NCBI RefSeq assembly: GCF_022837055.1
Contig: NC_062566.1
Span: 66,798,464-66,862,463 of the forward strand
Length of the DNA: 64,000 nucleotides
Source of the DNA: Prionailurus viverrinus
Lineage: Eukaryota
Reading direction: 5' to 3'
The notes under the pieces are model-generated. The model had not been told where the DNA came from and searched no databases. It worked only from the letters and a program-made list of their open reading frames with translations. The position numbers were made by a program, and so were the translations under genes. Shown piece by piece: positions 1,586 through 48,847 of this stretch (position 1 is the stretch's first letter; each line of letters opens with the position of its first letter).

Positions 1586-1802
1586 GGGGGGCGCCTGGGT
1601 GGCGCAGTCGGTTAAGCGTCCGACTTCAGCCAGGTCACGATCTCGCGGTCCGTGAGTTCGAGCCCCGCGTCGGGCTCTGGGCTGATGGCTCGGAGCCTGG
1701 AGCCTGTTTCCGATTCTGTGTCTCCCTCTCTCTCTGCCCCTCCCCCGTTCATGCTCTGTCTCTCTCTGTCCCAAAAATAAATAAACGTTGAAAAAAAAAA
1801 AA
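1586..1802 (+). mobile_element. Young CpG-intact SINEC (felid-type) copy inserted into the A-tail of the preceding SINE. TSD aaaaaaaatttttt.
   Basis: The sequence GGGGCGCCTGGGTGGCGCAGTCGGTTAAGCGTCCGACTTCAGCCAGGTCACGATCTCGCGGTCCGTGAGTTCGAGCCCCGCG... is nearly identical to the copies at 26234-26457, 37266-37482, 42988-43216 and 48629-48847. Confidence 0.9.
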
Positions 1803-2513
1803 TTTTTTTTTAAAGAAACTCTTGCACTTACTTATCAGGACACATGCAGGATATTAATAATGTACTTCCTTGATACAAACAAACCTAAACATCATTTAAC
1901 AGAATAACTAAATTATGGTGTAATCAGTGAGATTATATAACTGTGAAAACAAATGAGATCAGAGAGAATACAAGGGCTTCTAAGATACAAATTAATGTTC
2001 TAGTTTTGAAGCCAGGTGGACATTTTCAGATATTCTAATCACTCTTTAAACTGTACATACATGTTTTTCACATTCACTTGTCCATGTATTTCATCATAGA
2101 ATCTTTTCTGCTTCACTCTACCACCTACTGGCCATTTTTCTACTGCCTGGCCCTACACAAAGTATGTCAAATCAGGACTTGAGTAAAAGGAAAATAGTTA
2201 CCTGGTCTCATCTGTCTACTGACTCTAATGCACACACATTGCACCAGCCCCACTTTCTCCCCAGTTGCCCTCAACCACTTCTCAAGATATTTTACACCTT
2301 TCAAGTTCCTGATTGCTCTTCCATGACTGTAGGTCTCAAAATCAACACCCAGAACTGAACACAAAGCTCCACATGTGGTCTGACAGACACTGTATCAAGA
2401 CCTCTTCTCCCTGGCTGCTACAGATTCATTGGTACAGCCAAAACAGTGTTTTTGCAACCGTATCGTATTGATTACTCATACTAACTTTATCTACTAAAAT
2501 TCTCAGCAATTTT

Positions 2514-2760
2514 GGAGCAGCTGGGTGGTTCAGTCCACTAGGTGTTCGGCTCTTGATTTTGGCTGAGGTCATAATCTCACAGTTCATGGGTTTGAGACCC
2601 ATGTTGGGTTTCATGCTGACAGCACAAAACCTGCCTGGGATTCTCCCTCCGTCTCTCTCTCTCTCTGCCCCTCCCCGACTCCCCCTCAGCCCACCCCCAC
2701 CACTACTCGTACACGCACAGACATGCGCTCTCTCAAAACAAAAATATACTTTAAAAAAAT
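2514..2760 (+). mobile_element. Can-SINE, diverged copy
   Basis: The head is CTGGGTGGTTCAGTCC...GTCATAATCTCACAGTTCATGGGTTTGAGACCC, followed by a CT-rich body and an A-rich tail. Confidence 0.8.
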
Positions 2761-3980
2761 TCTCGATAATTTTTCATACATAATGCTAAAGATACACCTG
2801 GAAAGTTGGCCTCTTCAGACCAAAAGAATGGACTTCAAACTTTTATCTTAGATTCAGCCCTTATAACATTCTTAGATAGATAGATGCTGATTTTATTACC
2901 CATTCTCTGAGGATTCCTCTATGCTTTAGATTCTTCATAGAATGAATGAGCCACCAATGATATTCAAGTCACTGATAAAGTTCAAAAGGACCAGACAAGT
3001 ACAAAGACCTGAGCCAGATCACCAGAAGTCTTCCAAATTTATCTGTATCCATTAATGTACTCTCTGGTTACAGCCATCAGTTGGCTATTAATCCTCCTTC
3101 ACATTTTCCCATTTTTCCTCAAGGGTATTAAGAGAAACTATTACAAAATGTATCACTAGAATCTAAAGAAACTGAGTATCTGGCACTCTCTGGTCTTTCA
3201 GCCTAATAACACTATTCGAATAATATTGCTGCCATCTTGCACCACGAGGGCCACCCCCAAGGATGACAGAATGGGAAAATGGTTGGAAGCTGCTTCCCAG
3301 TGACTTTTTGTGGAGTTGCCATTCCTGCCTTGGGATACCTGTTGCCAGAAATCTTTTAACTGGAAGAGAAATAAACTATTTAGTGTAAAGAAAAAAAAGG
3401 GGGGGGGGGGATTACAATAATGGATTGAAGTGATCCTAAAACCAAAATCTAAGCTTGAAGAGAATGAAGCCAAACTATACAGTATTTTTTCTCCAAACAA
3501 ATTTAATTCTGTTCCAGCCCCAAAGAAGGGGAAGGACCTAATGTTTAAAAATAAAATAAAAGTTGCAAAAAAAACAAGCCATTAAAAAATCAAGCCCCCT
3601 CCCTTAGCAATAAATACTGCAATGATATATACACATGAGGCTCAGGAAGGAGGCAAGAACGAAAACCGTGGGGACTCTGTCCCACGACAAGATGCCAACA
3701 CTTCTACCAATTCCATGCTCTTTGCCTAAAACACAGAAGAGCGATGAAAGAGGCAGGAGAGATTACACCAGGGAAGTGTGTGGCCACAGAGAACCTGAAC
3801 ATGTGAACAGGAGAGAAAGACGAGACACAAAGTGTCCTACAGGGCAGGGGAAGGGAAAGTCATCATCTACAACATCCCCCCTTCCTGGCTGAGTCACTGG
3901 GTGGAGCTGGCCCAGCTGCTGACGGTCTTGAGCTTATCCTCTCGCCTCCGCTCCTTCTTCAGCATGCAAGTCAAGGACGG

Positions 3981-4100
3981 TCATTCGCACTGTGGCCGTG
4001 ATGCCACTGTGGCAGCGGCCTGACTGCTGGAGCCCTGGGGCTTCCCGTTCACCACCAGCAGGAGGGGTGTCTCCACACGAATACTGCAAAAGGAATAGTC
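3981..4100 (-). CDS. TTC5: TTC5 exon 10 (last coding exon, includes TGA stop at 3981-3983): [39 protein letters not shown]
   Basis: On the minus strand the acceptor reads cttttctag|GACTATTCC. The translation matches the remembered human TTC5 C-terminus, and the stop codon TGA is present. The summed CDS length of all 10 exons is 1323 nt, giving 440 aa. Confidence 0.85.
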
Positions 4101-5467
4101 CTAGAAAAGACAGACAGACAGAGGTTCATTACAGATCCTAAGGTAGAAGCACAGGGAAACACATCTGTGACTTTCTCCCTCTTCCTATCCCCTCAGTGTA
4201 TATGCTCCTTCCCTTCGTCTCACGTCAAATAAATAAAGCTGAGTTTATTTTTATATATCCCCTAACAAAGGGGATATAATTTTCCCCAAGTTTTCAATCT
4301 TCAGAAGGACAGTCTGGGGTAGGTAAGATGCCAGTAGTTTCACCACAAGAATGGGGCAAATCTCTGAAAAATGACAGGTGCCGCTGCTGCCTAACTAGAG
4401 GGTGCCACCAGCCTTCACAGAATCTGCCCGTCCCAGTGTCTTCTGACAATGAAAACCAGACGCACACAGCCACCAGCGAGAAGCCTGAGAAACTCTTAGT
4501 GCCAGTGTTTGTAAGGCCCTAAATTAACTTGCCAAAGATAAATTCAAGTTAATTCTCCCTTCTTCCTCCCTATCAGGGGGAAGAAACAGAATGTGTTGTT
4601 TAGACATTCCAATAATAACAGAAAAGACAGCCCACTTTACCAGTTCAAATGTACTTTAGACCATAAAACATGTTGTTAAAACATCTTCATCCAAAAACTA
4701 TTGTCCCACTCGGAGTTGTGAAGGAAGCGCTTTTAAGTCAAAGTGAAGATGTGAATTAAACAGTTCTCATAAGTCAATTTTTTAAATATCCTAACAGGAA
4801 TATGGGCAATGACAAAAAAATGCCAATTTATAAAAGGAATATAAACAGCCAATAAACTTGATAAAATATCCAACCTCACCAATAATCAAGAAACCAAAGC
4901 AAAACAATACCGATGCTGTATTTCTTCGTGTAAAATCAGCATTTAATTTTTCAAAGGTTTCTACCCAGACTTGAAAAGAAAACTACAAAGAAGCAATTAC
5001 ATCTGCTGTTGGTATTAACTAGTCCCACATTCCAAAAAATAACTTGACAATATGAATCAAAAGTCTTAGAATTCTGCATATCTTCTGGAACCAGAATTCT
5101 ACCTTAGAAATTCACTTAAGTAAATAATCATGGATATAGGCAGATAGAAAATTTTTTTACTACAGTGCCTTTATAATTGGGAAAAACTAAAAATAATCTA
5201 GATCTGAGAGAAGTAAATTTTTTCTGTAGAGGGCCAAATAATAATTAATTTAGGCTTTGTGGGTCATATGGTCTCTGTCACAGAAGAAGTATTCAACCCC
5301 GACCCCATAGTGCAAAAAGCAAACACAGACAAGAGTAAACAAATAAGTGTGGCTCTGTTCCCAAACAAATTAACTTTTTGGACACTGAAATTTGAATTCC
5401 CTATAATTTTCATGTATCACCAGTTATTCTTCTTCTTTCAATTTTTTCATTTAAAAATATAGAAACT

Positions 5468-5680
5468 GGGGAGCCTGGGTGCGTCAGTTAGTTAAGCATC
5501 TGACTTTGGCTCAGGTCATGATCTTGCAGTTAGTGAGTTCAAGACCCACATCAGGCTCTGTGCTGACAGCTCAGAACCTGGAGCCTGCTTCAGATTCTGT
5601 CTCCCTCTCTCTCTGCCCCTCCCCTGCTTTTGCTCTGTCTCTCACTCTCTCAAAAATAAATAAACATTAAAAAAAACAGA
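5468..5680 (+). mobile_element. Can-SINE. TSD aaaatatagaaact at 5455-5468 and 5687-5700.
   Basis: The head is GGGGAGCCTGGGTGCGTCAGTTAGTTAAGCATCTGAC and the tail is ...CAAAAATAAATAAACATTAAAAAAAA. Confidence 0.85.
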
Positions 5681-6705
5681 TAAATAAAAATATAGAAACT
5701 ATTCTTATATCACAGGCTATACAAAACAGTCAGGGAGCCAGATTTGATCAATAGGCCAGTTTTCCAACCCCTGATCTAAATGGTGAAAAAGTGGTGAAAC
5801 TGCTACTCTTAGAAGATTTCTGTGTTTATTACATGAGCCAGTATAGGCAATAAACCTCTTAACCCAGCACCCAGCAGTCAGTTAAGGTGTTAAGGAAATG
5901 TTAACTGTCATCATCATCTTCATCACCACCTTTGTGTGTCAATTCAAAACAATGCTGTTAGAATATGTTAAACTGCAGGAAATGTTCACAAACACTGCAT
6001 ATAATATTCCACTCATTAAAAATATACATATGAATGTACATATATACGCATACATATATGTATATACTATAAATAATATATATAAATAAATATATAATTA
6101 TAAATATGTTTATAAATGTATATATGTATATATACATATTTATGAAAAAAGACTGTAGGTATATATAAGAAACTAATATCTGAGTGATAATATTTCAGTC
6201 CATTTTTAAAAAAATTTTTTATAGAAATAATTGACATCTAACATGTATAAGTTTAAGGTGTAAACATGTTTATTTAATACATTTATATATTGGAATATGA
6301 TGACCACCATGGTGTTAGGTAACACCCCATCATGTCATACAGTTACCACTGCTTTTTTGTTGTGGGAGCAATTAAGATTTGTTCTCTTAGCAACTTTGAA
6401 GTATATAATACGATACTGTTGTCTGTAATCACTGTGCTGTGCATTAGCTCTCCAGGATTTATTTACCTACTAGTTCCAAGTCTGCACCCTTAAACAACAT
6501 CACCCCAATTTGCCCACCACAACCCCAGCCACTGGTAACCACTATTCTATTGTTTTCATGAGTTCAGCTTTTTTAGATTCCATATATAAGTGTTATCATA
6601 CAGTATTTTTCTCTGTCCAGTCCATTTTTTAAATTCTTATTTACCAGTAGGTTCCCTTTTTAGTAAAAAAAGTATATACATCATATATGAAAATATGTGT
6701 GTATA

Positions 6706-6706
6706 T

Positions 6707-6751
<45 letters not shown>

Positions 6752-6762
6752 GCATTACCTTA
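6706..6762 (+). repeat. Compound (CA)n(TA)n microsatellite
   Basis: The run reads cacacacacacacacacacacacatatatatatatatatatatg. Confidence 0.95.
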
Positions 6763-6839
6763 CATATTTATTAAAAGAGATAAACTTGGTCCCACTTTCA
6801 GAGCCTATAAGCTGGGAAAAAATCCTGGCCATCACTCAC

Positions 6840-6984
6840 TTTTCCTTTGTGCTGAATTCGGTGAAGCCGAAGATTGGGCTCAGGAATGGCTACGGAGTCC
6901 CCAATGAGCACTCCCCAACTCTGTACCATATTATACACCATCACTGCACAGCAAGGTCCATCTGAATCTACCAGGCCAAATGTA
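6840..6984 (-). CDS. TTC5: TTC5 exon 9: (F)[48 protein letters not shown]
   Basis: The minus-strand acceptor is aacctggcag|TACATTTGG and the donor is GGAAAA|gtgagtg. The reading frame is continuous with exon 8 (phase 2). The translation matches the human TTC5 OB-fold region. Confidence 0.85.
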
Positions 6985-8419
6985 CTGCCAGGTTAAGACG
7001 GGTTAAGGGAAGGGTGGGGAGGAAAGCAGGCAGGAAAGAAAAGCAAAAACAGTGGTTTTAGAATACCAGCAAAATTAACAAATGCTTTCTCAGTTAGTTA
7101 CTTAGAAAACTTAAGACAGGTACCATCATCTACCATCTGAGTCCTCATTTGTCTTACATATGTAATATCTTTAAAGCATATGCACAGGACTCATCAGTCT
7201 GTCACTTGACCAAGAACTTGAGACATCTGCACACTGAGACCATTCAACAAATAATAATGAACCAGCTCAAAATGTTGCAGCTGTGACATTATTCCTGGTC
7301 TATCAATTTAACCATCACAACCTTCCAACTCTCTAACCACCATCACTGTCGATTTAATTCAGTCCCACAAACTTTCCCTGAATGCCTCTTATGCGTCAAG
7401 CTTTGTGCTTAGCAATAAGACACTGATCCAGCTATGAGTGAGTTTACAGTCAAGCAGGAGTCAGACAGTTAAACCATCACTTACAGGACAAATGTGACAG
7501 GTGCCAGAATAGTTTTTCCCTTGCGATGAGTTCAGTGAGGCCAAAGATTGGACAGTGGGAACCCAGCGGAGAAATGTTCAAAACTAGAAGGCAGGGAAGA
7601 TTTCCTTGAGGAGGAGACCCTCAAACTGAATTGTAAAGGATGAAAAATTATCTGGGTTAAAAAAGGAAAACTACTCCTCAGTAGAAATAAAGAACCTCTG
7701 AGGGAATGAGAACAGGGACTGACTGGGAGGGAACATGAGAAAACTTTCCGAGGTGCTGGTAATTACTGTTCTCTATCTTGACAGGTGTTTGGGTTACACA
7801 GCTGTACGTGTTAGTCAAAACTCAGCAAATGTACACTAAGATTTGTATACTTCATTCTATGTAAATTTTTACGTAAAAAGAAGAAAACTGTAAAAAAAAA
7901 AAACAAAAAAAAAACACCAAACTCTAGTTAATGACTATACGCTGGAGTATTCAGAGGCAAGTATATAGATCTCTACAATTTACTCTGAAATGTACCAAAA
8001 TAAGATGGATCAATGGATAAATAAGCAGATAGATAGACATGTGATACACCAAGTATAGTAACATAGTAGAAGAATACAGGTGGTTGGGTACACAGATACT
8101 CACTGTAAAATTCTTTCAATTTTGCTGTGTTTGAAAATTTTTATAATAAATGTTGGGGGGAAAATGTTATCTATATCAAGAAGCAGTAAAAGGATTACCC
8201 AGACAGACACAGGAACAGTGTGTAAAGGCACAGAGGCATAAAAATAGCTGTTCTGAAACCCACAAAATAATCCCATGATGGTAACAAAAGGCACAAGTGG
8301 GAAAGTGACAGACAAGGAGTAAATTATGAAGGGTTTTTGCATGCTAAGCCAATCTAAGGAGTTCAAACTTTATCCTAAAAGTACCACAGCAGCAGTAAGG
8401 GATTTTAGATAAGAAATGG

Positions 8420-9010
8420 CGATGGTCGGTTTTGCATCGGGGAAATATTTCTCTGCACTGTGGAACACTGGAGGAAAACAAGGAGTCAGAATATGTGTCT
8501 GGAGAAGCAATAAGGAGCTATATTAAGTCAGTAGAGATAGAAAGGTAGGGACCAAAAAACCCAAAACAAATGTATGGACGTGGTGAGCACCACAATGCAG
8601 GAGAATGGAGAATTCTAGAACTTCTAGAAGTCTTAAGAGACTGAGCAGAAGTGGTACCACCGATTGGCAAGGAATGCAGGGAGGAGAAACAGTTTAGAGA
8701 GAAAGAGGAAGTGAGTAATTTTGAACCTACTGAGTTAGAGATTTCTGATTGGAGCCCAGAGGCAGTTGGATATAGGAATCCAAAACTTGGAAATGAGGCC
8801 TGGGCTGGAGATCCACCTGTGAGCATGGTGAAGGCAGCCAAAGCCTTGGGCTTATATGACATCACCAAAAGAGATGATCTATAATGAGATGGTGAAGAAC
8901 TGGTACACATGCCATCACTTGACACACCTGAATTCATAGCCAACCTGCAATCAAGCCCAACATTCTCTTGGTGGATCCAATCAAAGCCTCAGAATCCTTC
9001 TACACAGTAA
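8420..9010 (+). mobile_element. Possible ancient LINE (L2-like) remnant, with residual open reading frames on both strands
   Basis: The ORF track shows 8518..8943 (-) at 141 aa and 8651..8884 (+) at 77 aa. There is loose resemblance to L2 3'-region motifs, no resemblance to any host gene, and the region lies inside TTC5 intron 8. Confidence 0.25.
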
Positions 9011-9555
9011 CTTGGGCAGCTGCTGCCAAGTGATAAAAGTTAGCACCTATTTGCCATCCTGGTAAAGAGAGAAAAGAGAGTCCTCCTGGAACTTAACATT
9101 TAGAAGTTAAGAAAAAGAGAAACCAAGGAGTGACAAAATATTTGTTCTCAAGGCCCCCTAAAATCCACCTTTGTCTGAATTTCCTTCTCCTTCCTCTTAG
9201 CTCTAGGGTCTGCTCTAGTTAACAAAACTTTTCTCAACCATCTTCTTGCTCTTCAACCCATATGTCTCTAGAAAACACCATGGAGAAAGCTCGGGCATAT
9301 TATGGGAAGTGTTTCTGTTTGGATGAAGCAGAAGGGATATGAAAAGGAATAAACAGTGAGAGATAAGACAGTGTTGTGGAAACACATAGTGGAAGCCAAT
9401 GGACCAGACACTGGTGAGGCTAGAAAAAACAAATCCAGTAGAAAACAGAAAAAGGAAACCAGTCAACAAGGGATTAGGAAGTGAGTGAAGAACCAAGGAC
9501 TGATGGCACAGACTAAACCCTAATTTTTCAAGGCTTAAAAATCTTCTAAGTAAGG

Positions 9556-9652
9556 GGTGCCTGGCTGGCTCAGTCAGTAGAGCATGCAACTCATGATCTT
9601 AGGGTTGTGAGTTCGAGCCCTGTGCTGTAGTGCAAAGAGAACTTAAAAAATT
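9556..9652 (+). mobile_element. Short Can-SINE, a tRNA-like head only (the variant with TCAGTCAGTAGAGCATGCAACTC)
   Basis: The sequence reads GGGGTGCCTGGCTGGCTCAGTCAGTAGAGCATGCAACTCATGATCTTAGGGTTGTGAGTTCGAGCCC. Confidence 0.75.
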
Positions 9653-10216
9653 TAAACCTTTAAGAACATTTTTTTTCTAGGTGAATGTTCTTAACTCATA
9701 TCCTCTACTAGACTGTAAGCACCTTCACTTGGATCCTTTACATTTCACTCCCTACCACACATATACCAGATGCTCAATAAATATTTGTTAAATAATATCT
9801 GAGACAATATCCCCATCAGGCCTTAAAGTCTAACTCAAAGCTAACCTTTCGGAACTGCCTAGTCATACCTAAGTCCAAACAGGACTGAAAATTTTTCCTC
9901 CTTTAACTTCTATGATCATGAAAACACAAAGAAGCAGGAGAATTTCAAGGTTTCCTTCTGTCTTCTAAAAAACACAGCAGTTCAATTTCAGCTATGGATG
10001 CAGGAATCCACAGAGCACCAAGCTCAGAGAAAAAAATGGGTGATGACAGAATCTACAGAGAGACTGTTAGGTATCACCTCAACACTCATGAGACAGTCAC
10101 AGAGGGAAGCAGAACTCACTAATCTGTGACCACAAACAATGTCCTCAAATGTCAAAGAAAGGCCAAGTGAGACCAATTCAAAAGAATGAAAAAGAGGAAA
10201 GGGAAAACAAACTCAC

Positions 10217-10431
10217 AAGGGGACTTTCTCCTCTGTGGTGAGGCTGAATACCACCTTTCCTAGGACCACAGCACCACTGTTCACACCGGGTTGTAGTGCA
10301 CTCAGGGGCTTGAGCTCCAGGGTCAACTTCTGCCCGGAGGCTGACTGGTAGCGCCCATCACCACAAGGGCCTAGATGAGCCGGGCGCAAGCTTCCCAGCA
10401 TGCTCTGCAACTTTTTGGTCTTCACCTTTCC
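10217..10431 (-). CDS. TTC5: TTC5 exon 8: [71 protein letters not shown](F)
   Basis: The six-frame ORF track has a matching ORF at 10213..10437 (-). The acceptor is (T)20 gcag|GGAAAGGTG and the donor is CCCCTT|gtgagt. Confidence 0.9.
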
Positions 10432-10459
10432 CTGCAAAAGAAAAAAAAAAAAAAAAAAA

Positions 10460-10853
10460 TCGAAAAGAATGAAATCTTGCCATTTGCAACAACATAGATG
10501 GAACTAGAGTATATTACGCTAAGCAGAATTAGTCCATCAGAGAAGGACCATATGATTTCACTGATATATGGATTTTAAGAAACAAAACAGATGAACATAG
10601 GGGAAGGGAACCAAGAATAAGAAAAACAGAGAGGGAGACAAACCATAAGAGACTCTTAAATACAGAGAACAAACTGAAGGTTGATGGCGGGGAGGTGGGT
10701 GATGGGCTAAGTAGGTGATGGGCATCAAGGAGGGCACTTGTTAGGATGAGCACTGGTTGTTATATGTAAGTGATGAAGCACTAAATCCTATTCTTAAAAT
10801 CATTATTACACTATATGTTAACTAACTTGGGCTTAAATTAAAAAAAAAAAAAA
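10460..10853 (+). mobile_element. L1 (carnivore LINE-1) 3' end fragment, ORF2 C-terminus plus 3' UTR and A-tail
   Basis: The sequence GAATGAAATCTTGCCATTTGCAACAAC...GGAACTAGAGTATATTACGCTAAGC is the same L1 tail seen at 13107-13610 and 33700-34110 ([23 protein letters not shown] motif). It ends in poly(A). Confidence 0.85.
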
Positions 10854-10856
10854 GGA

Positions 10857-11070
10857 TGGGGCACCTGGGTGGCTCAGTCAGTTAAGCATCCACTTCGGCT
10901 CAGGTCAGGGTCCCATAGGTTTGTGGGTTCAAGCCCCAAGTCAGCTGCGCTGACAGCTCAAAGCCTGGAACCTGCTTCGGATTCTGTGTCTCCCTCTCTC
11001 TCTCCACCTCTCCCCTGTTCACACTCTGTCTCTGTCTCTCTCCCTCAAAAATAAATACTTAAAAAAATAT
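10857..11070 (+). mobile_element. Can-SINE
   Basis: The head is GGGGCACCTGGGTGGCTCAGTCAGTTAAGCATCC, with the canonical CT-rich body and tail. Confidence 0.85.
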
Positions 11071-11435: not shown

Positions 11436-11545
11436 CTGCACAAGAAGTAACCAAAAACCTCCCAATTATATGTATATTTAACACAAACTACACCGAGGGA
11501 GTAATGGCACAATGCACTAGCAATCTACGGAAATAAACTGTTTCT

Positions 11546-26233: not shown

Positions 26234-26457
26234 TTTTTTTTAAATTTTTTTTTTTTTCAACGTTTATTTATTTTTGGGACAGAGAGAGACAGAGCATGAA
26301 CGGGGGAGGGGCAGAGAGAGGGAGACACAGAATCGGAAACAGGCTCCAGGCTCTGAGCCGTCAGCCCAGAGCCCGACGCGGGCTCGAACTCCCGGACCGC
26401 GAGATCGTGACCTGGCTGAAGTCGGACGCTTAACCGACTGCGCCACCCAGGCGCCCC
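26234..26457 (-). mobile_element. Young CpG-intact SINEC copy (reverse orientation). Perfect 15-bp TSD aataagaaacttttt at 26219-26233 and 26458-26472.
   Basis: Its reverse complement is nearly identical to the copy at 1586-1802, and about 17 CpGs are retained. Confidence 0.9.
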
Positions 26458-27267
26458 AATAAGAAACTTTTTAAAAGTGACATATAATAGTCCTAATAAA
26501 GGCTCTCTTTACTTTTTAATTATAGTTCATTTGTATTTCAAACTGATCCTGTGGGGTCTGGGGAAGAAAAAAGAAAGAAAAACTGATCTTGTGAACCTAA
26601 CAAAAGAAGCAAAGGTCCAAGGCAGAAATCATGAATATACATAAAATTATTTCCCCAAACCATTTTCCAGCAAAATTTAAAACTGCTTAAGGAAGAAAAA
26701 TACTTTGCAACATAACCTATGAAATCTGTGTTAACAGCTATGAAATGGGGAGAGGGGTTTTAAAAGATTTTACCTTTTTCTCAGACACCATTTTAACTTT
26801 GGAATACAGAAAACAAATTTTTAAGTGAAGTTATATTCTATACTATTAAACGAAGAAAACATTACTTCCTTTCTATCCAATTATATAAAGCAAGGGTATT
26901 TACTTGCCTTTCTACAATTAAATATACAACCTCTTCAAATGCTTTCAGTATGACTTTATTACCCAAATAACAATGGGATTTGACATTTAGGGTAGTCCCA
27001 TTGTATTTCCTCCCAAACCAATAAAAATAAATAAAATTCAAGAGGTAGAGAAGGGTTACAAGATAATTTAATTCAGTCCTTCATTTTACAGATGTAGAAG
27101 CAAATTCCCAGAAAGTTTAAATTCAAACTCACAACCAATAGGAAAAAAACATAATTGGAACCTAGATGTCCTGCCTCTGCAATCAGTATGCTTTCAAGTC
27201 ACGCCCCTAATAGGATGTAAGGTAACTGAAAGTGTCATTCAAATTTCTTTCCTGGCTCCACATTTTT

Positions 27268-37212: not shown

Positions 37213-37560
37213 AATACTGCAATTTGGGGAGCACTTGGCTGGTTCAATCGGTAAAGCATGCAACTTTTTTTTTTTTTTTCAACGTTTATTTATTTTTGGG
37301 ACAGAGAGAGACAGAGCATGAACGGGGGAGGGGCAGAGAGAGAGGGAGACACAGAATCGGAAACAGGCTCCAGGCTCTGAGCCATCAGCCCAGAGCCTGA
37401 CGCGGGGCTCGAACTCACGGACCGCGCGATCGTGACCTGGCTGAAGTCGGACGCTTAACCGACTGCGCCACCCAGGCGCCCCAAAGCATGCAACTCTTGA
37501 TCTCAGGGTTGTGAGTTTAAGCCTCAGGTTGAGCAGAGAGATTACTTAAAAATAAAATCT
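37213..37560 (+). mobile_element. Older short Can-SINE (tRNA-like head of the AGCATGCAACTC type), split by the nested young SINE at 37266-37482
   Basis: The element reads GGGGAGCACTTGGCTGGTTCAATCGGTAAAGCATGCAACT | insert | AAAGCATGCAACTCTTGATCTCAGGGTTGTGAGTTTAAGCC. Confidence 0.8.
37266..37482 (-). mobile_element. Young CpG-intact SINEC copy (reverse orientation) nested in an older SINE. Perfect 13-bp TSD aaagcatgcaact at 37253-37265 and 37483-37495.
   Basis: It is nearly identical to the copy at 26234-26457, and the TSD duplicates host-SINE sequence. Confidence 0.9.
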
Positions 37561-39989: not shown

Positions 39990-40310
39990 ACCTGAGGCGC
40001 CCAGATAAAGCGCGGGAAAACACCGTTGCCGCCACAATTCCACAACTACTGTAGGGAGGGCTCGCCCTGCGGCTCTTACTACATCTGAGAGCGCATGCGC
40101 GGGGTTGCCCCGGAGCCTGCCGGGTACTGGGCACAGGGCTTCGTACCGCTCGGGATCCTGGGACCGGTCAGGCTGTGGCACCCAGACTTGGTTGGGTACG
40201 TATTCCCGGCGCAGGCGCATATCAGGCGCTATGAGGGTGCGAGTCTCACGTAGTGTGGTCTAGGTTTCCCGCTTGGGAGCCCAATGGATACAGCCATTGA
40301 GTTCCCTTCA
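39990..40310 (-). promoter_or_regulatory. CCNB1IP1: CpG island, probably the CCNB1IP1 promoter plus its 5' non-coding exon 1. A possible donor lies at CCTCAG|gttaga near 39992.
   Basis: This is the densest CpG cluster between the CCNB1IP1 coding exons and RPPH1 (gcgcatgcgcggggttgccccggagcctgccgggtactggg, ccggcgcaggcgcat). It lies about 1.4 kb upstream of the first coding exon. No other CpG island exists between 40.3 and 61.5 kb. Confidence 0.45.
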
Positions 40311-41837
40311 CTGCCCTCGACTGGCAGAAGAGTTAACATCCTAGCCCTCCTGGGTGTAACAGCAGAGGTCAGAGTCTCCCGAGGTAACAGCAGGCAAGGG
40401 GGCGAGAGGCAGTTGAGAAGCTAACAGAACCTCTGAGTACACAGGCGTGTTTGTCCTAGAAACACTTGGGGATGACAGGCTGGGCACCACATACTTCCTA
40501 AGTAGGAAAATGTCCCGGAAATGTGATGCCTGTAATTGGATAGCTATCACCTCCACATTCTAGTTCTGCCATTTTACTTTTCATCCATCTTGGTACAGGG
40601 ATCTTTATAGCTTTCACATATCTTCTAGATACATTTAAAAATAGAACTTTTCTTTAGTTTATGATGTTACCAACATTTATTACAGGGCCTGAAATGAAGG
40701 GAGGATCAGGGGTCACAGCTTTTTTGAGGTGACCTGCCTGTGTGCTCTCCTGGACCTCCTTTTAATTGTTTAAATGTTTGTGCCTGTTTTACCCTAATGC
40801 TGTCACCTGCCAATTTCGTTTCTGTTCTGTGTAACCTGTGTGGTCTTCTGCTCAATCTATAGAAGCCTATTGGAATTCATATTAGAAACTAAGCTGAAGA
40901 GGGCTTGAGGGGTCCTCAGAATACAAGCCTTAATGCTGCCTTTTGCAGCCACCTGTCCACATAATGTGTAGTAACAGATAACTACACAATGGACACCAAA
41001 GCCCTGTAAACCCCTTTATGGGTTGTAAATCTCTATTACTAACCCTTTCTTCTTCAAACAAAACCTATCCTAATTACACAACTTTTGGCTAGTTTTCTGT
41101 CAACTTCCAACTTGTTCACAGTAATTAGAAAGGGTCCTCTTAGCCTTTGTATACATTTCCTAAAATGTCGTCTGAGAGTTTACAGTGGTAACTTAATTCT
41201 GGTGGTACAAACTGGATTCAAACAAAAGTGGGTGTTCATGTGTAAACCCCTAACATCTCTTTTGCATATCTGAGCAGTTTATGCATTTCCTGATTTTAAT
41301 TATGCCAAATATACTACAAAAGTGTAGAATCTAAAGTTAGAAGCATTCAAATTCAACCAGTACCTAACTTTGTGATCTAACTTACCTTTGTACTGCAACA
41401 TGATCTCTTCCTGCTTCTTCATCAAGAGCATTGATTCCCCAAACCTTAGGGTTTCAAAACTAAGTCAGTTTCAAAGTCAGTCTCAAATTTCCTCTAGAGT
41501 CAGTTTCACATTTCCAACCCACTTGGCTAAAAACCTGTAAGAATAATATACATATTATGTGGGTGTGTATGTATACTTTTTTTTGCCAACATTTTGCCGG
41601 ATAGAATAAAAAGGGGCAGGGGGCTACAAAGACTTAGTATCCCAGTTATCTGGAACACCAGGAACTGAACTAACCTCCTTCTTAGTGGCATTGTGTCCTC
41701 TTGTTATGGCAAACCTTTCACTGCCTTCACTGGCTCTTTTCTGGAGTGCTCCTGGGGATGAGATTACTAAAATCAATCAGGGCTGAGATACAGAGACCCA
41801 TCCACCAAACAGAACTTTTTAAAATACTGGTTTTTGG

Positions 41838-42030
41838 GGTACCTGGATGGCTCAGTTAAGCATCAGACTTCAGCTCAGGTCATCATCTCCCAGTTTGTGA
41901 GTTTGAGCCCCAGATCAGGCTCTCTGCTGACCTCTCAGAGCGTGGTGCCTGCTTTGGATTCTGTGTCTGCCTCTCCCCCACGCATACTCTGTCTCTCTCT
42001 CAAAAATAAACATTAATTTTTTTTTAAATA
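41838..42030 (+). mobile_element. Can-SINE
   Basis: The head is GGGGTACCTGGATGGCTCAGTTAAGCATCAGAC. Confidence 0.85.
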
Positions 42031-42987
42031 TTGGTTTTTATTATTAAATATCAAGCATACAAAAAATGTGACGAATGACCATCATGCAGCTTTAATAAAC
42101 TGAAATCTTTCTCACACTTGATTTTCTTTTAAATGAAGTAACATATTATAAATATAACTGAAGCCTCCCCATTTTCTTCTACCTCTCCAGAGGTAAACAA
42201 GCCAGATTTTGGTATTTATCATTCTCATACATGCTTTTATACTTTTAGTATATATGTATATATCAATCTTCTTTTGCATGTCCTTAAACTACTAAAATCT
42301 TATTTTGCGTGTCCTAAAACTACTTATCATAGTATGCATCACTTTGCTATTTTATTAACTGTTTTTGACATGTAGTCATGTTAATACACATACCTTGCAT
42401 TAATTCATTTTAACAGCCAAATTCTAAAAATTTACCACAATGTATCCATTCTTCTAATGGACATTTCTTCCAGGTTTTTAAAATTAAAGACAATACTTCA
42501 ATAAACTTCCTATACATGTCTTCTTGAATACACATGCCAAGAATTCCTATAGAACATAATACCCAGAGACTGGATTTGTGTATAATCAACTTCAAATAAA
42601 TTTCACTACCACCAGCAAAGACGAGAGCACACTGCTTCAGACTTAGCAACATATGCAAGTGTCATTTTTCTGGTTTTGTTTTCATTTTTGCCCTTATGAT
42701 GGCAGTAAAATGGCATCTCAATGTTTTAACATGCCAATTCTTTGATTATTAGTGAGATTAAGCATCTTTTCAGGTGACTGACTACTCAGAGATCCTCATC
42801 TGTGAATTATTCATATCCTTTGATCATTTCTATATTTCTATGGAGTCCTTTGTTGATTACATGGTATGTAAACCTAAGTTTTAATTTTACTGTATACAAA
42901 TTTATCAATCTTTCCTTTTGGTGCTTAAGTCTATTCCAATGTCATCATATTCCTTGTTTTTCTATAGGTTTAAAGTTTTGCTTTTCA

Positions 42988-43216
42988 GGGGCGCCTGGGT
43001 GGCGCAGTCGGTTAAGCGTCCGACTTCAGCCAGGTCACGATCTCGCGGTCCGTGAGTTCGAGCCCCACGTCGGGCTCTGGGCTGATGGCTCAGAGCCTGG
43101 AGCCTGTTTCTGATTCTGTGTCTCCCTCTCTCTGTGCCCCTCCCCCGTTCATGCTCTGTCTCTCTCTGTCCCAAAAATAAAATAAAACGTTGAAAAAAAA
43201 AATTAAAAAAAAAAAA
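42988..43216 (+). mobile_element. Young CpG-intact SINEC copy. Perfect 15-bp TSD aagttttgcttttca at 42973-42987 and 43217-43231.
   Basis: It is nearly identical to the copy at 1586-1802. Confidence 0.9.
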
Positions 43217-43903
43217 AAGTTTTGCTTTTCATTTATAGATGTTTGATCCATTCTTCCTAATATAAGGATCTGGATAAACTCTGTAATTTGTGCTTACGCA
43301 TCATTTATACCATTTAATTACAGATTATCTTCACGTTTCAAAAATGATTTATCATAAAGTTTGATATTGATCTTGGGTAGATATTAAGTGTCTATCAGCT
43401 ATACTGAGTACTTATATACCACATTGCTCTAAAAATTTCAAAATAGTAATTTCTCCTGTTATTATTGAATCTTAGAATGTTAGCATGATCTAAACTAATT
43501 TGATACTTATATTCATTTTAATGGAAGAATCTTAATCTAAAAATTAGATTTCATATTATAGTGACATACCATTTCTATAATTCTAGTATGAGTATTAAAT
43601 CTCATTTCAAATCACAGGGATAAGTACTAGACTTCCAATACCTGAATTTGTATGTTATATCCCTTGCAAGTAAAATATATCCTCAGGGATATAAATATAC
43701 TATGTAGGGCAAAAAATTCTTTAAAGTATAATTTAGCCAAAACAATTATAAGTATTTCAACATTAACGATAAAGCAGAAATAATGACTTTTTAACCATAC
43801 CTGAGTGCTCTGTAAAACTTAAATCAATGATAAATGTCCAATTAAGGCTATAAATAAAATGCTCATAATAAAAGATATCCTATTAAATATCAGTAAGCTT
43901 TTG

Positions 43904-44105
43904 GGGCACCTGGGTGGCTCAGTCGGTTAAGCGTCCGACTTCAGCTCAGGTCATGATCTCACGGTCTGTGAGTTCAACCCCATGTTGGGCTCTGTGCTGA
44001 TGGCTCAGAGCCTGGAGCCTGCTTCAGATTCTGTGTCTCCCTCTCTCTCTGCCCCTCCCCTGCTCATGCTCTGTCTCCCTCTGTCTCAAAAATAAATAAA
44101 AACAT
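43904..44105 (+). mobile_element. Can-SINE
   Basis: The head is GGGGCACCTGGGTGGCTCAGTCGGTTAAGCGTCCGACTTCAGCTCAGG. Confidence 0.85.
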
Positions 44106-44119
44106 TTAAAAAAAAAAGA

Positions 44120-44285
44120 CTTCAATCGACTTCAGCTCAGGTCATAATCTCATGGTTCATGAGTCCAAGCCCTGCACTGGACTCTACTGTCAGCACAGAG
44201 CCCACTTTGGACCTTCTGTCCCCCCTCTCTGCCCCTTTGCTGCTGGTTCTCTCTCAGAAAAATAAATAAACATACATACATACAT
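44120..44285 (+). mobile_element. 5'-truncated Can-SINE with a (CATA)n-containing tail
   Basis: The sequence reads GACTTCAGCTCAGGTCATAATCTCATGGTTCATGAGTCCAAGCCC...AAAAATAAATAAACATACATACATACATAAATG. Confidence 0.75.
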
Positions 44286-44389
44286 AAATGTAGGCTTTTA
44301 TATAATTATTCCTCAAACCCAGGTTGTTTTGGCAGCCATTCTTCATTGACCCTTAAAGGATCAAGCATCATAATCAAAGTAATCTCTAC

Positions 44390-44468
44390 ACCCAGCTTGG
44401 GTCTTGAACTCACAACACTAAGATCAAGAGCAGCATGCTCTACCAATAAGCCAGCCAGGCACCCCAAG
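44390..44468 (-). mobile_element. Short tRNA-like Can-SINE head (reverse orientation)
   Basis: The plus strand reads GGGTCTTGAACTCACAACACTAAGATCAAGAGCAGCATGCTCTACCAATAAGCCAGCCAGGCACCCC. Confidence 0.7.
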
Positions 44469-44844
44469 TATTAAGACTTTTAGGTAGACTCACTGGTACC
44501 CAGATGTACCTATATATACAATGTACCTATATATACATTTTTCATCAGAGTCAAAATTTAAGTTCCAATTATTACATGTAAATAAATGTCTTGCCAAAAT
44601 GCCATTAAAAAGGGTGCCATTTTCCAGGAACTTAAAAAAATATCTAATGGAGGTTTCACTTCACATATTTTTGAGTATTCTAGGCCAGGCATTACAGATA
44701 AGGAAGTTTTCCTGCTTTCATGGAGTTTACAATCTAGCAAAGAATCTAAGAATGATGAAAGAAAATATTTTACTCTTCCTGCCTCTTACATTTTTGCAAG
44801 GTTTTTTTAACTAATTTTCTTGCATTTCTTTTAAAAAAAATTTT

Positions 44845-45040
44845 GTTAATGTGTATTTTTGAGAGAGATAGAGCATGAGTGGGGGAGGGGCAGAGCGAGG
44901 GAGACACATAATCCGAAGCAGGTCTCAGGTTCTGAGCTGTTGGCACAGAGCCCAATGCAGGTCTCGAACTCACGGACCTCGAGCTCATGACCTGAGCTGA
45001 AATCGGATGCTTAACCAACTGAGCCACCAGACACCCTGCA
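44845..45040 (-). mobile_element. Can-SINE (reverse orientation)
   Basis: The plus strand reads ...TTTTGAGAGAGATAGAGCATGAGTGGGGGAGGGGCAGAGCGAGGGAGACACATAATCCGAAGCAGG...CAACTGAGCCACCAGACACCC. Confidence 0.85.
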
Positions 45041-45129
45041 AGTTGATTCTATAAACCCTTTCTGAGGAGAAAAGTCTGTTTCCATCTTTAATTTCCATCT
45101 ACTTTCATGCTGTGAAGAAAAATACATTT

Positions 45130-45322
45130 TTTAAAAATGTTTATTTATTCTTTGAGAGAGAGCACAAGCAGGGGAGGAGCAGAGAAAGACACACAGAATC
45201 CAAAGCAGGCTCCAGCCTCTGAGCTATCAGCACAGAGCCCAATGCAGGGCTCAAAACCCGTGAGATCATGACCTGAGGTGAAGTCGGACGCTTAACCGAC
45301 TGAGCCACCCAGGCACCCCGAA
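45130..45322 (-). mobile_element. Can-SINE (reverse orientation)
   Basis: The plus strand reads TTTAAAAATGTTTATTTATTCTTTGAGAGAGAGCACAAGCAGGGGAGG...CGACTGAGCCACCCAGGCACCCC. Confidence 0.85.
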
Positions 45323-46242
45323 AAATACATTTTTAATACTAACCTAAAATGTGTAAGCAACCACTCGGTAGAAAATTGATCAGTAGAAACTCATCAGTAC
45401 AAAATGATTACACAACTTAAAATGTAAACATGAATGACTTCAGAGTTATTGTTTCAGAAACTCTCAATTTACTAAACCACTTTCTTTCATAGCCCTAGGT
45501 CAGTGCTATTCAAATACTATTGCAGTCAAAGGATTGTCAATAAACTTATACATCCTTATATTTTAATGTTAGTTTTGTTTTATTTTTTCAATCACAGGTA
45601 CATTGTCTTAACCTAGAATCACCATCTGCTTTGTAATTGTTTGACTCCGCAAAAATCAGAAGACACTAACGGACGGCCAACCCATCCCCATGGTGCCCTG
45701 AGTGAAAACAAGTCAGCTTGGATATATGATGGACTAAAATCTCACTACCTAAGCTCTAAGCAGTGAGAGGAACAGCCATCAAAATTTATCTCCAACCATT
45801 TTAATAAATGTTTTAAGAATGTTTTAATGTTTAAGAATGTTTTAAGAAATATTTTAAGAAACATTTATAAAAATAAAGATACTAAGTCATTCTTTTTTTT
45901 TCAAGTCAGTCTTAATAGGAATCAATCACTACATCTAAATTTTTAAAAAGTCAATTAAGAGCTAAATGAACCATCAAGTATCATCTGCTCCAGCTAAAAG
46001 ACAAAATGAGGAATAGGATGATAAATAACTCAGTGCCAAAACAAGATCAATCAACTAAAGAAATGTTATTGGAACAGTCACATAGAGATACACACTAGTC
46101 CTGATTATCATACTTATTACCATAATTCTAGAACTTTAAATTAGGTTTTATGTGCTGGAGATAAAGATGTCAGAAACCAGCAGGTAGAATAGTTTAAGAT
46201 AAATATGCACATGGACTTTGATGATAAAACAGCTAATATCTA

Positions 46243-46445
46243 GGGGCACCTGGGTGCCTCAGTCGGTTAAGTGCCCAGCTTCGGCTCAGGTCATGATCTC
46301 ATGGTTCATGGTTTGGAGCCCCACATCGGGCTCTATGCTGACAACTCAGAGCCTAGAGCCTGCTTCAGATTATGTGTCTCCTTCCTTCTCTGCCCCTCCC
46401 CCACTTGCACTGTCTCTATCTGAATAATAAACATCAATAAAAAAA
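46243..46445 (+). mobile_element. Can-SINE
   Basis: The head is GGGGCACCTGGGTGCCTCAGTCGGTTAAGTGCCCAGC. Confidence 0.85.
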
Positions 46446-48568
46446 AAACAGGTAATATCTATTGAACAATCACTATATGCTTAAGCAGTGTTCTAAGCCC
46501 ACAAATTTATTATCTAATCTTCAAAGTGACGTACTATTCTTTTGAATCTGGCACTATTATTCTCATAAGATATTAAGACACTGAGATGTTAAGAAACTTG
46601 CCAAGGTTACATAGCTGTTAAGTGACAAAGGATTGGTTTGAACTCAGTTTCACTCCAGAATCTATGCATAATATACTATGCTACCTCAACATCTTTGACC
46701 TTTTAAAAAATTAAATCTGTAGCAACTTAGCAGCTGGCCACGAATCCACAAAGTTGAATTTTCAAAGATTCATATGTATGTCAAAGCTTCTCAGCTTCAA
46801 CATAAGCCTTACCACAAAAGAAAAATGTTGTCATCATCTGTTGTATATCCAGGACTTACAACACCCAAGGATTCCAAGCTGGGAAAGAAGTCAGACTCAG
46901 ATCTAGTTTTGGTCTCCTGAAACGTCATTGCTGCAAAAAGACATAGCCAAAAAAGACATAGTACTTTGGATTATTTGCATTTCCTGTATTTCTCCCTCAG
47001 ATGTACGCCATTCTCTGCTGAAGCATGCAGGCACAGATAAAAAGAATAGAAGCCTGTTCTGTGTAGGTTCAATTAATACAATACATGAATATAATAAAGT
47101 CAGAAAACACAGGGTAACAGGATCACCCTTAGAATCCAATTCTAGAAACAATAATCCCTAGTATTGAGTATATCCTTTCATAAAATTTCTGAAGTAAACA
47201 TAAGTATATGAAAATATTTAAGCATAAAAGGGATTAGGCACACTGCTCTATAATTTGTTTTTAACTCAATGTATCTTGAATATCCTTCCATTTCAAAAAA
47301 GGTAAACCTGTATCAGAACTTTTAAGTGACTACATAGTGTTGCATTTTATGATCCTGACAAAATTGACTGAACCAACTCTGAAATCCTTTTAATCTTATA
47401 TATAAATTAATAAAATAGTGATTAGTTAAAAACCGCAAAGTAAAGTGGGTGATAGAATTATACCAGTTATCAGTGCTTTTTCTGTAGTGTTTGAATGTTT
47501 ACACTGAGGAAGATTCTTGACCCTGGTTCTATCTATGTCAAGAAGATATCACAAAAGGTCAAAGCACACAACAAAGTGTTGTAGTATCAGATCTGTAATT
47601 CAAAGATTTAAGATTTACCTGGGACTGGGGGGCTAGATCCCAGTAAGAATTCCAAGAAGCAGAATTCAACTCCAGGGTTTTGCCCTAGCTTTAGTCTGCT
47701 CAGAGCATGTGTTTAATCAGGGTGATCAGCTGAAACACGGACTTAACATGCATTTCATCATGGCAAACTATAGGTGACTGATGAAGGGCAAACCACCACA
47801 GGCTCCCCGTCTCTAAACTAGGAGGACACTCTTAAGGTTAGAACTAAGGCTTTTTCAAACTACCAAATTCCAGCCACTAAGGACACTGAGCCCCAAAACT
47901 TACTAGATGATTAGAAATCCAAATCAAGTAAAAAGACTTTTCTTTTACATTTACCTCTGATATCAAATCCATCCGCTTCTATCTAGAAATTAGTTGAACC
48001 ACACGATCTACCAACTACCTGCATATCATCTTTCCAAATGCATCATCTCTGAAAAATAAAGAGTAAATAATAAAGGTTATGATTACAGGACTTGAATGCA
48101 TACCAGCCTACTCCCAAGCCACATCTCTATAGCCTCAAGGAAAATTAACCTCAAGGAAAACCATTCTTTGTATCAATCGCCAACCAGTAATATAAATTGA
48201 CCCATCTATTTGGAGAATGAATGGCATGAAGTGCCCAAATGCCCAAACTCAGTATCACATTAGGACAGGACTTCTTACACAAGCTCAGATTCTTGTATAA
48301 ATTTAAAAGTTTGGGTAAAACTGTACAATAAGTTTAACCAAACTCCAAAAGTTACATGTCCAGAGTCTCACAATAAGAGAACAGTATGGAAAAGGAAGGA
48401 GCCATGTGCTGGCTGCAACCAGAGCTTTGCAGTTATGGGAACAAATTCAGTGAGATGGGGCATAAATGACATGGGTTACTGCCAACCTTTCCAAGTCCAT
48501 AGGGTGTTCAACTACAGAAAATACTTGTAACCAGTCATTAGATTCACAAAATCCTTTAAAAAAAAAAA

Positions 48569-48569
<1 letters not shown>

Positions 48570-48612
<43 letters not shown>
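48570..48612 (+). repeat. (GAAA)n microsatellite of about 10 units
   Basis: The run reads aaagaaagaaagaaagaaagaaagaaagaaagaaagaaaa. Confidence 0.95.
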
Positions 48613-48628
48613 AAAAATAAGGAAACGA

Positions 48629-48847
48629 GGGGCGCCTGGGTGGCGCAGTCGGTTAAGCGTCCGACTTCAGCCAGGTCACGATCTCGCGGTCTGTGAGTTC
48701 GAGCCCTGCGTCAGGCTCTGGGCTGATGGCTCGGAGCCTGGAGCCTGTTTCCGATTCTGTGTCTCCCTCTCTCTCTGCCCCTCCCCCGTTCATGCTCTGT
48801 CTCTCTCTGTCCCAAAAATAAATAAAAACGTTGGAAAAAAATAAATA
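48629..48847 (+). mobile_element. Young CpG-intact SINEC copy. TSD aataaggaaa.
   Basis: It is nearly identical to the copy at 1586-1802 (with ...GCGGTCTGTGAGTTCGAGCCCTGCGTCAGG...). Confidence 0.9.

Follow-up and report, generated by a model that had tools for sequence, protein, structure and literature searches.

The 64,000-nt stretch of Prionailurus viverrinus DNA analysed here (the window) includes the genes TTC5 and CCNB1IP1, and five closely similar full-length SINE copies, c1 to c5, lie in and around them. c1 (1586-1802, plus strand) is 2.2 kb 3' of the TTC5 stop codon, and c2 (26234-26457, minus strand) is intergenic, with the 3' end of CCNB1IP1 on one side and the start of TTC5 on the other. 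Mapping a Panthera CCNB1IP1 mRNA contig onto the window gave the intron numbers for the other three. c3 (37266-37482, minus strand) has the orientation of the gene and occupies its first coding intron, number 6 in the mapped transcript. c4 (42988-43216, plus strand) is antisense to the gene in a 5'-UTR intron, intron 3, which it shares with SNORA79, about 2.4 kb away; SNORD126 is 4.5 kb from it. c5 (48629-48847, plus strand) is also antisense and is in intron 1. An earlier sequence-only reading of this DNA had found each copy at the correct coordinates and on the correct strand, and had correctly placed c1 in the TTC5 3' flank and c2 between the genes, but its 'intron 2' and 'upstream' positions for the CCNB1IP1 copies give way to introns 6, 3 and 1.

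A blastn search of the window with a 208-nt consensus returned about 45 SINE-like matches, some 40 of them besides c1 to c5, with a clearly bimodal distribution of identities. The five copies are 96.7-99.5% identical to the consensus (c1 99.5%, c3 99.0%, c2 97.6% and c4 97.1%). The next-best SINE, at 43903-44112, reaches 89.6% and has 4 CpGs, and those ranked below it are at most 85% identical, with 0-7 CpGs. The other SINEs are therefore more diverged and CpG-decayed, as the sequence-only reading had described them (at most 89.6% identity and 7 CpGs). Its claim of near-identity is also borne out, as c1 to c5 differ pairwise at 1.5-4.4% of a body of about 203 nt, under the 5% it had set as the limit, and the signature string said to be shared is found in all five and in no other SINE of the window. 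'About 17 CpGs each' describes c1 (17), c2 (17) and c3 (16) well, but is too high for c4 and c5, with 14 each. The tails differ: c1 and c3 end in pure runs of A13 and A15, those of c2 (A14 TTT A13) and c4 (A10 TT A14) are interrupted, and that of c5 is degraded (A7 TAAATAAAT...).

All five copies have an A box, TGGCGCAGTCGG, and a B box, GAGTTCGAGCCC, with the exception that in c2 one nucleotide is missing immediately 3' of the B-box core. In each a CT-rich region is followed by an A-rich tail with AATAAA (CTCCCTCTCTCTCTGCCCCTCCCCC ... CCCAAAAATAAATAAACGTTGAAAAA(n)). ARAGORN folded the heads of c3 and c4 into tRNA-like structures; the same heads fell under the threshold of the Rfam tRNA model, as expected of a degenerate derivative. 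CanSINEs are of tRNA-Lys origin and found only in Carnivora (PMC4084570). Among the published diagnostics, an A>T change in the B box separates subfamily I from II, GGCTCGG in the tRNA-related region marks felid subfamily II, a single-T indel at alignment position 51 separates subtypes IIA and IIB, and a T>G change in the Pol III A box is specific to felid subtype IIB (PMC4084570). Among the approximately 31 scorable SINEs of the window, the A-box form TGGCGCAGT is confined to c1 to c5, while 26 others carry TGGCTCAGT. As this G form matches the published T>G diagnostic, c1 to c5 are assigned, on sequence, as tRNA-derived CanSINEs, putatively of felid subfamily II, subtype IIB (SINEC_Fc-type), a name taken from the published diagnostics and not from a library match. 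c1 and c5 have GGCTCGG; c2, c3 and c4 have GGCTCAG, one CpG transition away, a difference that may come from CpG decay or from variation in the source. The Repbase voucher SINEC_Fc1 clusters with subtype IIB, and all 49 of the 49 IIB loci sampled were clade- or species-specific within Felidae (PMC4084570). Membership of c1 to c5 in the youngest known, still-active felid SINE lineage is supported.

Single-copy empty sites in other felids bear out the target-site duplications (TSDs) of all five copies. c1 landed in an older SINE (1397-1577), within its A/T tail; the TSD of c1 is about A8T6, as against a longer A/T run, with the nick at TT|AAAA. The TSD of c2 is 15 bp (AAAAAGTTTCTTATT, nick TTTT|AAAAA), that of c3 13 bp (AGTTGCATGCTTT, with a non-canonical nick) and that of c4 15-16 bp (AAAGTTTTGCTTTTCA, nick TTT|AAAG). 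c5, whose neighbours are a (GAAA)n microsatellite and an older SINE, has a TSD of 10-11 bp, AATAAGGAAA, and three extra 5' bases of the insert, CGA at 48626-48628, lie between this and the 5' end of the SINE. The TT|AAA[A/G] nick fits three of the five insertion sites. The long, perfect duplications first described thus stand for c2, c3 and c4, but c5 has only its shorter repeat, offset by the CGA.

Nine felid assemblies, identified by way of PMC10206138, PMC13409816 and bioRxiv 10.64898/2026.03.10.710750, were genotyped at the five sites, with the flanking genes TTC5 and CCNB1IP1 giving access to the loci; the F. catus assembly was Fca126. The TTC5 protein beside the locus is identical in F. 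catus and Prionailurus bengalensis. Each copy proved to be empty in at least one related felid, the comparison that the sequence-only reading had proposed. c1 is filled in Prionailurus bengalensis (L003, 31915-32131), with one CpG substitution and two 1-bp indels relative to the window, and its site is cleanly empty in F. catus, Lynx pardinus, Panthera uncia and Panthera onca. c3 is filled in Prionailurus bengalensis (L001, 11155-11370) with two substitutions, shares the private variants GATCgCGCGG and GTCaGG with that copy, and is empty in F. catus, Puma, Panthera pardus, Panthera onca, Panthera tigris and Neofelis. c5 is filled in Prionailurus bengalensis (L001, 1 to about 227), with the same flank including the CGA, one CpG substitution and three CpG-site variants common to both species; Panthera pardus, Panthera onca, Panthera tigris and Neofelis are empty, with a single TTTCCTTATT, and F. 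catus and Puma are outside the coverage. The Puma locus begins just inside the c5 site. Single-TSD empty sites for c2 were found in Prionailurus bengalensis, F. catus and Puma concolor, and for c4 in Prionailurus bengalensis, F. catus, Puma, Panthera pardus, Panthera onca, Panthera tigris and Neofelis. Among the felid genomes scored, c2 and c4 are found in the window only, and F. catus is without the copy at all four sites scored there (c1, c2, c3 and c4). With a clean empty site in some relative for every copy, c1 to c5 are real insertions, and they are lineage-specific.

As c1, c3 and c5 are filled in Prionailurus bengalensis too, and agree there in TSDs and private variants, they are older than the split between that species and the window's. 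c1 and c3 date from the interval between the Felis and the Prionailurus bengalensis splits, c5 from that between the Pantherinae and the Prionailurus bengalensis splits, and c2 and c4 from after the Prionailurus bengalensis split. Substitution divergence is 0.60% between the window and Prionailurus bengalensis, 1.38% between the window and F. catus, and 1.46% between F. catus and Prionailurus bengalensis. At a distance of 1.38%, and with SINE states unlike those of Fca126 at all four sites scored, the window does not come from a domestic cat but from a cat of the Prionailurus lineage. A Logan TTC5 mRNA contig (L005, DRR619600) gave just 7-9 differences in either direction, which is too little information to place the window's species. 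If the Felis-Prionailurus distance (1.38-1.46%) corresponds to about 6.2 My, the split between the window's species and Prionailurus bengalensis dates to roughly 2.5-3 My. Between these two, the orthologous SINE copies show 4 substitutions over about 600 bp (0.66%), on a par with the 0.60-0.66% of their flanks, and CpG changes between them number 2 in about 47.

Similarity to the consensus does not follow this order of insertion. The older c1 and c3 are nearest to it, and the window-specific c2 and c4 are farther away, 2.4-2.9% off. Private copies with 97.6-99.5% identity to the same consensus are present in Puma, Lynx, Neofelis, Panthera uncia and Prionailurus bengalensis. Such near-consensus copies in several felid lineages indicate that the master sequence has been stable across Felidae, and, as one consensus gave rise to private insertions in five other lineages, identity to it does not date an insertion. 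We therefore regard c1 to c5, with high confidence, as independent germline insertions of one known non-autonomous felid CanSINE, made at different times on the window's lineage, their similarity coming from a near-unchanged active master. The resemblance reflects this conserved master and not a burst within one species. From what is known of the family, and in keeping with the anatomy of the copies, the master would be transcribed by RNA polymerase III from its internal A and B boxes. The A-tailed RNA would then probably be captured by LINE-1 ORF2p, which would nick a TT|AAAA-like site and copy the RNA by target-primed reverse transcription, an outcome of which would be an A tail and a target-site duplication of 10-16 bp.

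The sequence-only reading had drawn a different conclusion, that the present species has an active subfamily of which all five copies are very recent products, and that they are hence likely to be presence/absence polymorphisms. Their high mutual identity, 14-17 CpGs and intact TSDs fit this, as do the pure A13-A15 tails of c1 and c3. However, it is the older copies that lie nearest to the consensus, just 2 CpGs in about 47 have been lost since the split, and the same consensus has made private insertions in five other felid lineages. c1, c3 and c5 are common to Prionailurus bengalensis despite 0.60% divergence, and within-species polymorphism of these three is unlikely. Trans-species polymorphism, for which one Prionailurus locus is on record (PMC4084570), could in strict terms still explain why two species have c1, c3 and c5. 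c2 and c4 are missing from the nearest species compared, Prionailurus bengalensis, and Prionailurus species are on record as having unfixed CanSINE loci (PMC4084570), although these two copies have interrupted tails and lie 2.4-2.9% from the consensus. It is possible that they are insertion polymorphisms, and we treat them as candidates. A lookup in sequencing-run assemblies of window ORFs beside or across the c4 junction, and of its flanks, gave no match, and a literature search found no cat structural-variant paper that quantifies polymorphic SINEs. What survives of the claim is membership of the youngest active lineage, together with the lineage-specific nature of all five insertions; that c1, c3 and c5 are orthologous in Prionailurus bengalensis tells against the rest, and as an account of all five copies it seems decidedly improbable.

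The c2 target site is more complex. Lynx pardinus has its own SINE at the c2 nick, with an 11-bp TSD, AAAAAGTTTCT, and all five Pantherinae have a different SINE 46 bp from the site, with TSD GTAAAGAGA. c2 and the Lynx copy could be orthologous. c2 would then be old, and its absence from Puma, Felis catus and Prionailurus bengalensis would be due to incomplete lineage sorting or to precise excision from between the TSDs. The two have the same orientation and the same TTTT|AAAAA nick, both carry the sub-lineage variant GTCCgGGAG, and their divergence of about 2.5-3.5% is similar to the 1.8% of the flanks; near-complete SINE excision and discordant loci have also been reported in felids (PMC4084570). 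Orthology would, however, require three independent clean losses, or a polymorphism carried through three successive splits, where one extra insertion is more parsimonious. The TSD is 11 bp in Lynx and 15 bp in the window. The G of the shared variant recurs in unrelated young copies, two in F. catus and two in Lynx, and therefore marks a source sub-lineage and not shared descent. The Pantherinae SINE, as a third independent insertion only 46 bp away, indicates that the region is a hotspot, and felid CanSINE hotspots with overlapping TSDs have been described (PMC4084570). Orthology of c2 with the Lynx SINE was rejected on parsimony, TSD length and the recurrence of the shared variant, and we consider it very improbable.

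That the similarity of c1 to c5 arose from gene conversion after insertion, or from collapsed or consensus-polished repeats in the assembly, is hardly credible: nothing specific favours it beyond its being a generic possibility for high-copy repeats, the private variants of c3 and c5 are reproduced in two independent assemblies from different species, the orthologous copies have diverged at the rate of unique flanks, and each copy is bounded by its own TSD, with an intact pre-insertion site in other species.

Independent insertion from a conserved master agrees with what has been published for felid CanSINE subtype IIB (Walters-Conte et al. 2014, PMC4084570), which has the same tRNA-related head, A-box T>G change, CT-rich region, A-rich tail and TSDs, is likewise limited to single felid clades or species, and likewise inserts beside or into older CanSINEs and reuses target sites. 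Divergence among copies is low in both, with a published mean of 0.068 (PMC4084570) and 0.015-0.044 for c1 to c5. The difference that GGCTCGG is intact in just two of our five copies is not one of kind. As far as could be checked, c1 to c5 are five further loci, outside the 93 published ones (PMC4084570). They are an already-known kind of element and leave CanSINE biology unchanged.

Two better-known systems offer comparison. Dog SINEC_Cf is a caniform CanSINE with thousands of bimorphic loci, for which bimorphism within the species has been demonstrated genome-wide. It belongs to the same superfamily of tRNA-derived, L1-mobilised carnivore SINEs, has the same layout as c1 to c5 and is likewise recently active, with lineage- or individual-specific insertions in and near genes, but it comes from the other suborder and has a different subfamily sequence. 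The human AluY, Ya5 and Yb8 elements work in the same way as CanSINEs: they are transcribed by Pol III, insert by LINE-1 target-primed reverse transcription with TSDs and descend from a few long-lived master genes, and their young copies are CpG-rich and serve as homoplasy-poor phylogenetic markers. The two are non-homologous, Alu being dimeric and derived from 7SL RNA, the CanSINE monomeric and tRNA-derived, with a CT-rich region.

With their sequences verified, the five loci can serve directly as phylogenetic markers. c1 and c3 group the window's species with Prionailurus bengalensis and apart from Felis; c5 sets the same pair apart from Pantherinae, Felis being outside the c5 scoring; and c2 and c4 are candidate markers at the species or population level. 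A bolder reading, which we think doubtful, is that c2, c4 or both are still segregating and that the c2 target is a true recurrent LINE-1 endonuclease hotspot, with the identical nick used in two felid lineages and a third insertion 46 bp off. If so, SINE homoplasy in Felidae would be commoner than the assumption of a 'homoplasy-free marker' allows, and c4, within a 5'-UTR intron of CCNB1IP1 (HEI10), a regulator of meiotic crossover, might conceivably segregate as a variant that affects regulation or splicing. Where a SINE master is conserved over many millions of years, consensus identity, intact CpGs and perfect TSDs are no proof that a copy is recent enough for polymorphism; only the comparison of orthologous empty and filled sites shows this.

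Direct reading of the five intervals showed that the copies, c1 (1586-1802, +), c2 (26234-26457, -), c3 (37266-37482, -), c4 (42988-43216, +) and c5 (48629-48847, +), are full-length SINEs of ~205 nt plus an A tail, each with GGGGCGCCTGGGTGGCGCAGTCGG at its 5' end and CCCAAAAATAAATAAACGTTGAAAA(n) at its 3' end. Pairwise mismatch among them in a MAFFT alignment was 1.5-4.4%. A search of the window with their 208-nt consensus found ~45 SINE-like segments, with c1-c5 96.7-99.5% identical to the consensus, the next-best SINE at 89.6% and the remainder at ≤85%. The five near-identical copies are therefore real and far beyond chance. The sequence-only reading gave each about 17 CpGs, which suits c1, c2 and c3 (17, 17 and 16; consensus 16) but not c4 and c5 (14 each); the window SINEs at ≤85% identity carry 0-7. 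It also listed four perfect target-site duplications (TSDs), but the fourth, at c5, is 10-11 bp long and set off from the SINE by an extra CGA (48626-48628). At c1, GG (1586-1587) likewise separates the SINE's canonical start from the 5' copy of the TSD. These extra bases may be untemplated additions, or the Pol III transcript may have included upstream flank of the source gene.

The copies have the structure of the carnivore tRNA-derived SINEs (CanSINEs): the head resembles a tRNA and contains the Pol III A and B boxes, there is a CT-rich stretch and an A-rich tail containing AATAAA, and TSDs are present. ARAGORN folded two of the five heads as tRNA-like. The sequence preferred by the LINE-1 endonuclease, TT|AAA(A/G), is seen at three of the five nick sites. 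From what is known of the family, the source of c1-c5 would be transcribed by Pol III, and its transcripts inserted through L1-mediated target-primed reverse transcription. Feliform CanSINEs split into an old subfamily I and a Felidae subfamily II (Walters-Conte et al. 2014, PMC4084570). The same paper gives a T>G substitution in the A box as the mark of subtype IIB, and each of the 49 IIB loci it sampled was limited to a single felid clade or species. Among the window's SINEs, c1-c5 and no others carry the G form, TGGCGCAGT, and 26 carry the T form. Each of the five is a lineage-specific insertion from the youngest SINE subtype in felids. Earlier work has already described the family and its activity, as well as its hotspots with overlapping TSDs and its loci unfixed within species (PMC4084570).

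The orthologous locus was obtained through exact-protein look-ups from nine assemblies (Felis catus, Prionailurus bengalensis, Puma concolor, Lynx pardinus, Panthera uncia, P. pardus, P. onca, P. tigris and Neofelis nebulosa). Each site was scored from the sequence between two anchors of 300-400 bp, one in the unique flank on either side. Three copies are shared by the window and P. bengalensis. The c1 site is empty in F. catus, L. pardinus, P. uncia and P. onca (Puma, P. pardus, P. tigris and Neofelis not covered), the c3 site in F. catus, Puma, P. pardus, P. onca, P. tigris and Neofelis (L. pardinus and P. uncia not covered), and the c5 site in P. pardus, P. onca, P. tigris and Neofelis (F. 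catus, Puma, L. pardinus and P. uncia not covered). The other two are filled in the window only. The c4 site is empty in P. bengalensis, F. catus, Puma, P. pardus, P. onca, P. tigris and Neofelis (L. pardinus and P. uncia not covered), and the c2 site in P. bengalensis, F. catus and Puma. In-silico genotyping of the flanks, as the sequence-only reading had proposed, thus found empty sites in relatives for all five copies. The TSD is present exactly once at every empty site, which establishes c1-c5 as insertions and bears out even the weak duplications at c1 and c5.

At the c2 site, L. pardinus has an insertion of its own at the same nick and the five Pantherinae have another SINE 46 bp away with the TSD GTAAAGAGA, so that three CanSINE insertions from three felid lineages lie within about 50 bp (window 26458-26510; ~6776-7003 of locus L004; ~6787-7040 of locus L002). 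The L. pardinus copy could be taken for an orthologue of c2, as both lie in the same orientation at a TTTT|AAAAA nick and both carry a T>G variant (GTCCgGGAG). Against this, the TSD is 11 bp in L. pardinus and 15 bp at c2, the G variant recurs in unrelated young copies of F. catus and Lynx, and Puma, F. catus and P. bengalensis are closer to the window than Lynx, yet have intact empty sites. Parsimony favours independent insertions at a hotspot, in agreement with the published felid CanSINE hotspots.

Substitution-only distances over 42-47 kb were 0.60% between the window and P. bengalensis, 1.38% between the window and F. catus, and 1.46% between F. catus and P. bengalensis. Puma was ~1.34-1.40% from all three, and the Pantherinae ~2.0-2.2%. 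The Felis-Prionailurus split is commonly put at ~6.2 My, reportedly by Johnson and colleagues in 2006, and scaling 1.4% to that date places the split between the window lineage and P. bengalensis near 2.5-3 My. The published genome-wide figure for F. catus against P. bengalensis is 97.3% identity (PMC8006817). On these distances the window does not come from domestic cat but from a close relative of the leopard cat, probably a second Prionailurus species, and a split of that age would suit the fishing cat, for example. Insertion of c1 and c3 followed the Felis split and preceded the P. bengalensis split, c5 inserted between the Pantherinae and P. bengalensis splits, and c2 and c4 inserted after the P. 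bengalensis split. The c3 orthologues have the private variants GATCgCGCGG and GTCaGG in common, and the c5 orthologues three CpG-site changes and the CGA. Between the window and P. bengalensis, orthologous copies show 4 substitutions over about 600 bp (0.66%), equal to the unique flanks, and only 2 of about 47 CpGs have changed.

TTC5 and CCNB1IP1 exons, placed with sequence probes, lie on the minus strand. Both proteins were rebuilt with GT-AG junctions; the 277-aa product exactly matches the CCNB1IP1 records of F. catus and Prionailurus viverrinus, and the 440-aa product the TTC5 of several felids. Mapped to the window, a Panthera CCNB1IP1 mRNA contig spans 52410 to about 28206 in eight exons. 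Copies first assigned to CCNB1IP1 intron 2 and its upstream region fall instead in introns 6 (c3), 3 (c4) and 1 (c5) of this transcript; c2 is indeed intergenic and c1 in the TTC5 3' flank, 2.2 kb past the stop. Rfam placed SNORA79 (45635-45781, -) in the same CCNB1IP1 5'-UTR intron as c4, SNORD126 (47693-47769, -) in a 5'-UTR intron, with c5 one intron upstream, and the nuclear RNase P RNA RPPH1 (61563-61897, -, 267 bits) upstream. A homology search gave no felid representative because the 90%-identity cluster holding felid CCNB1IP1 has a TTC5 protein as its representative and mixes products of both neighbouring genes, the likely cause being read-through or fusion gene models.

Directly 5' of c5 lies a (GAAA)n microsatellite (window ~48560-48612; ~228-330 of the P. 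bengalensis locus L001; loci L006-L009) of highly variable length, with just some 3 units in Pantherinae, more in the window and most in P. bengalensis. A 203-bp tandem duplication, 100% identical, at 7280-7683 of L001 is single-copy in the window (40963-41174), and is either very young or an assembly artefact.

The suggestion that c1-c5 come from a very recently active subfamily and are likely to be polymorphic stands in part: they are lineage-specific, of the youngest subtype, and have empty sites in relatives, but c1, c3 and c5 predate a speciation event and are therefore poor candidates for polymorphism, expected to be fixed in both species. c2 and c4 are still candidates, each with a low probability of segregating. 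The features behind the "very recent" call had no discriminating power, as the older c1 (99.5%) and c3 (99.0%) are closest to the consensus. In a census of SINE-sized indels, five felid lineages proved to have private copies that match this consensus at 97.6-99.5% (P. bengalensis 2, Puma 2-3, L. pardinus 4-5, Neofelis 1, P. uncia 1). Consensus identity, CpG retention and clean TSDs cannot pick out copies young enough to segregate. P. bengalensis has four private SINEs in the TTC5-CCNB1IP1 interval (L001 17054-17276 and 18092-18341; L003 14468-14686 and 20061-20289), of which two match the young type (98-99.5%) and the other two reach no more than 85-89% similarity to the young consensus. F. 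catus has one in the first coding intron of CCNB1IP1, and there are several more in the Puma and Lynx intervals (sites in other felids: L014 4155-4372; L012 3696-3919 and 24101-20; four in L004). These private SINEs imply that insertions are frequent in this gene-dense region and that one or more further source types are active, and the near-consensus private copies show that the CanSINE master sequence is nearly constant and active across Felidae.
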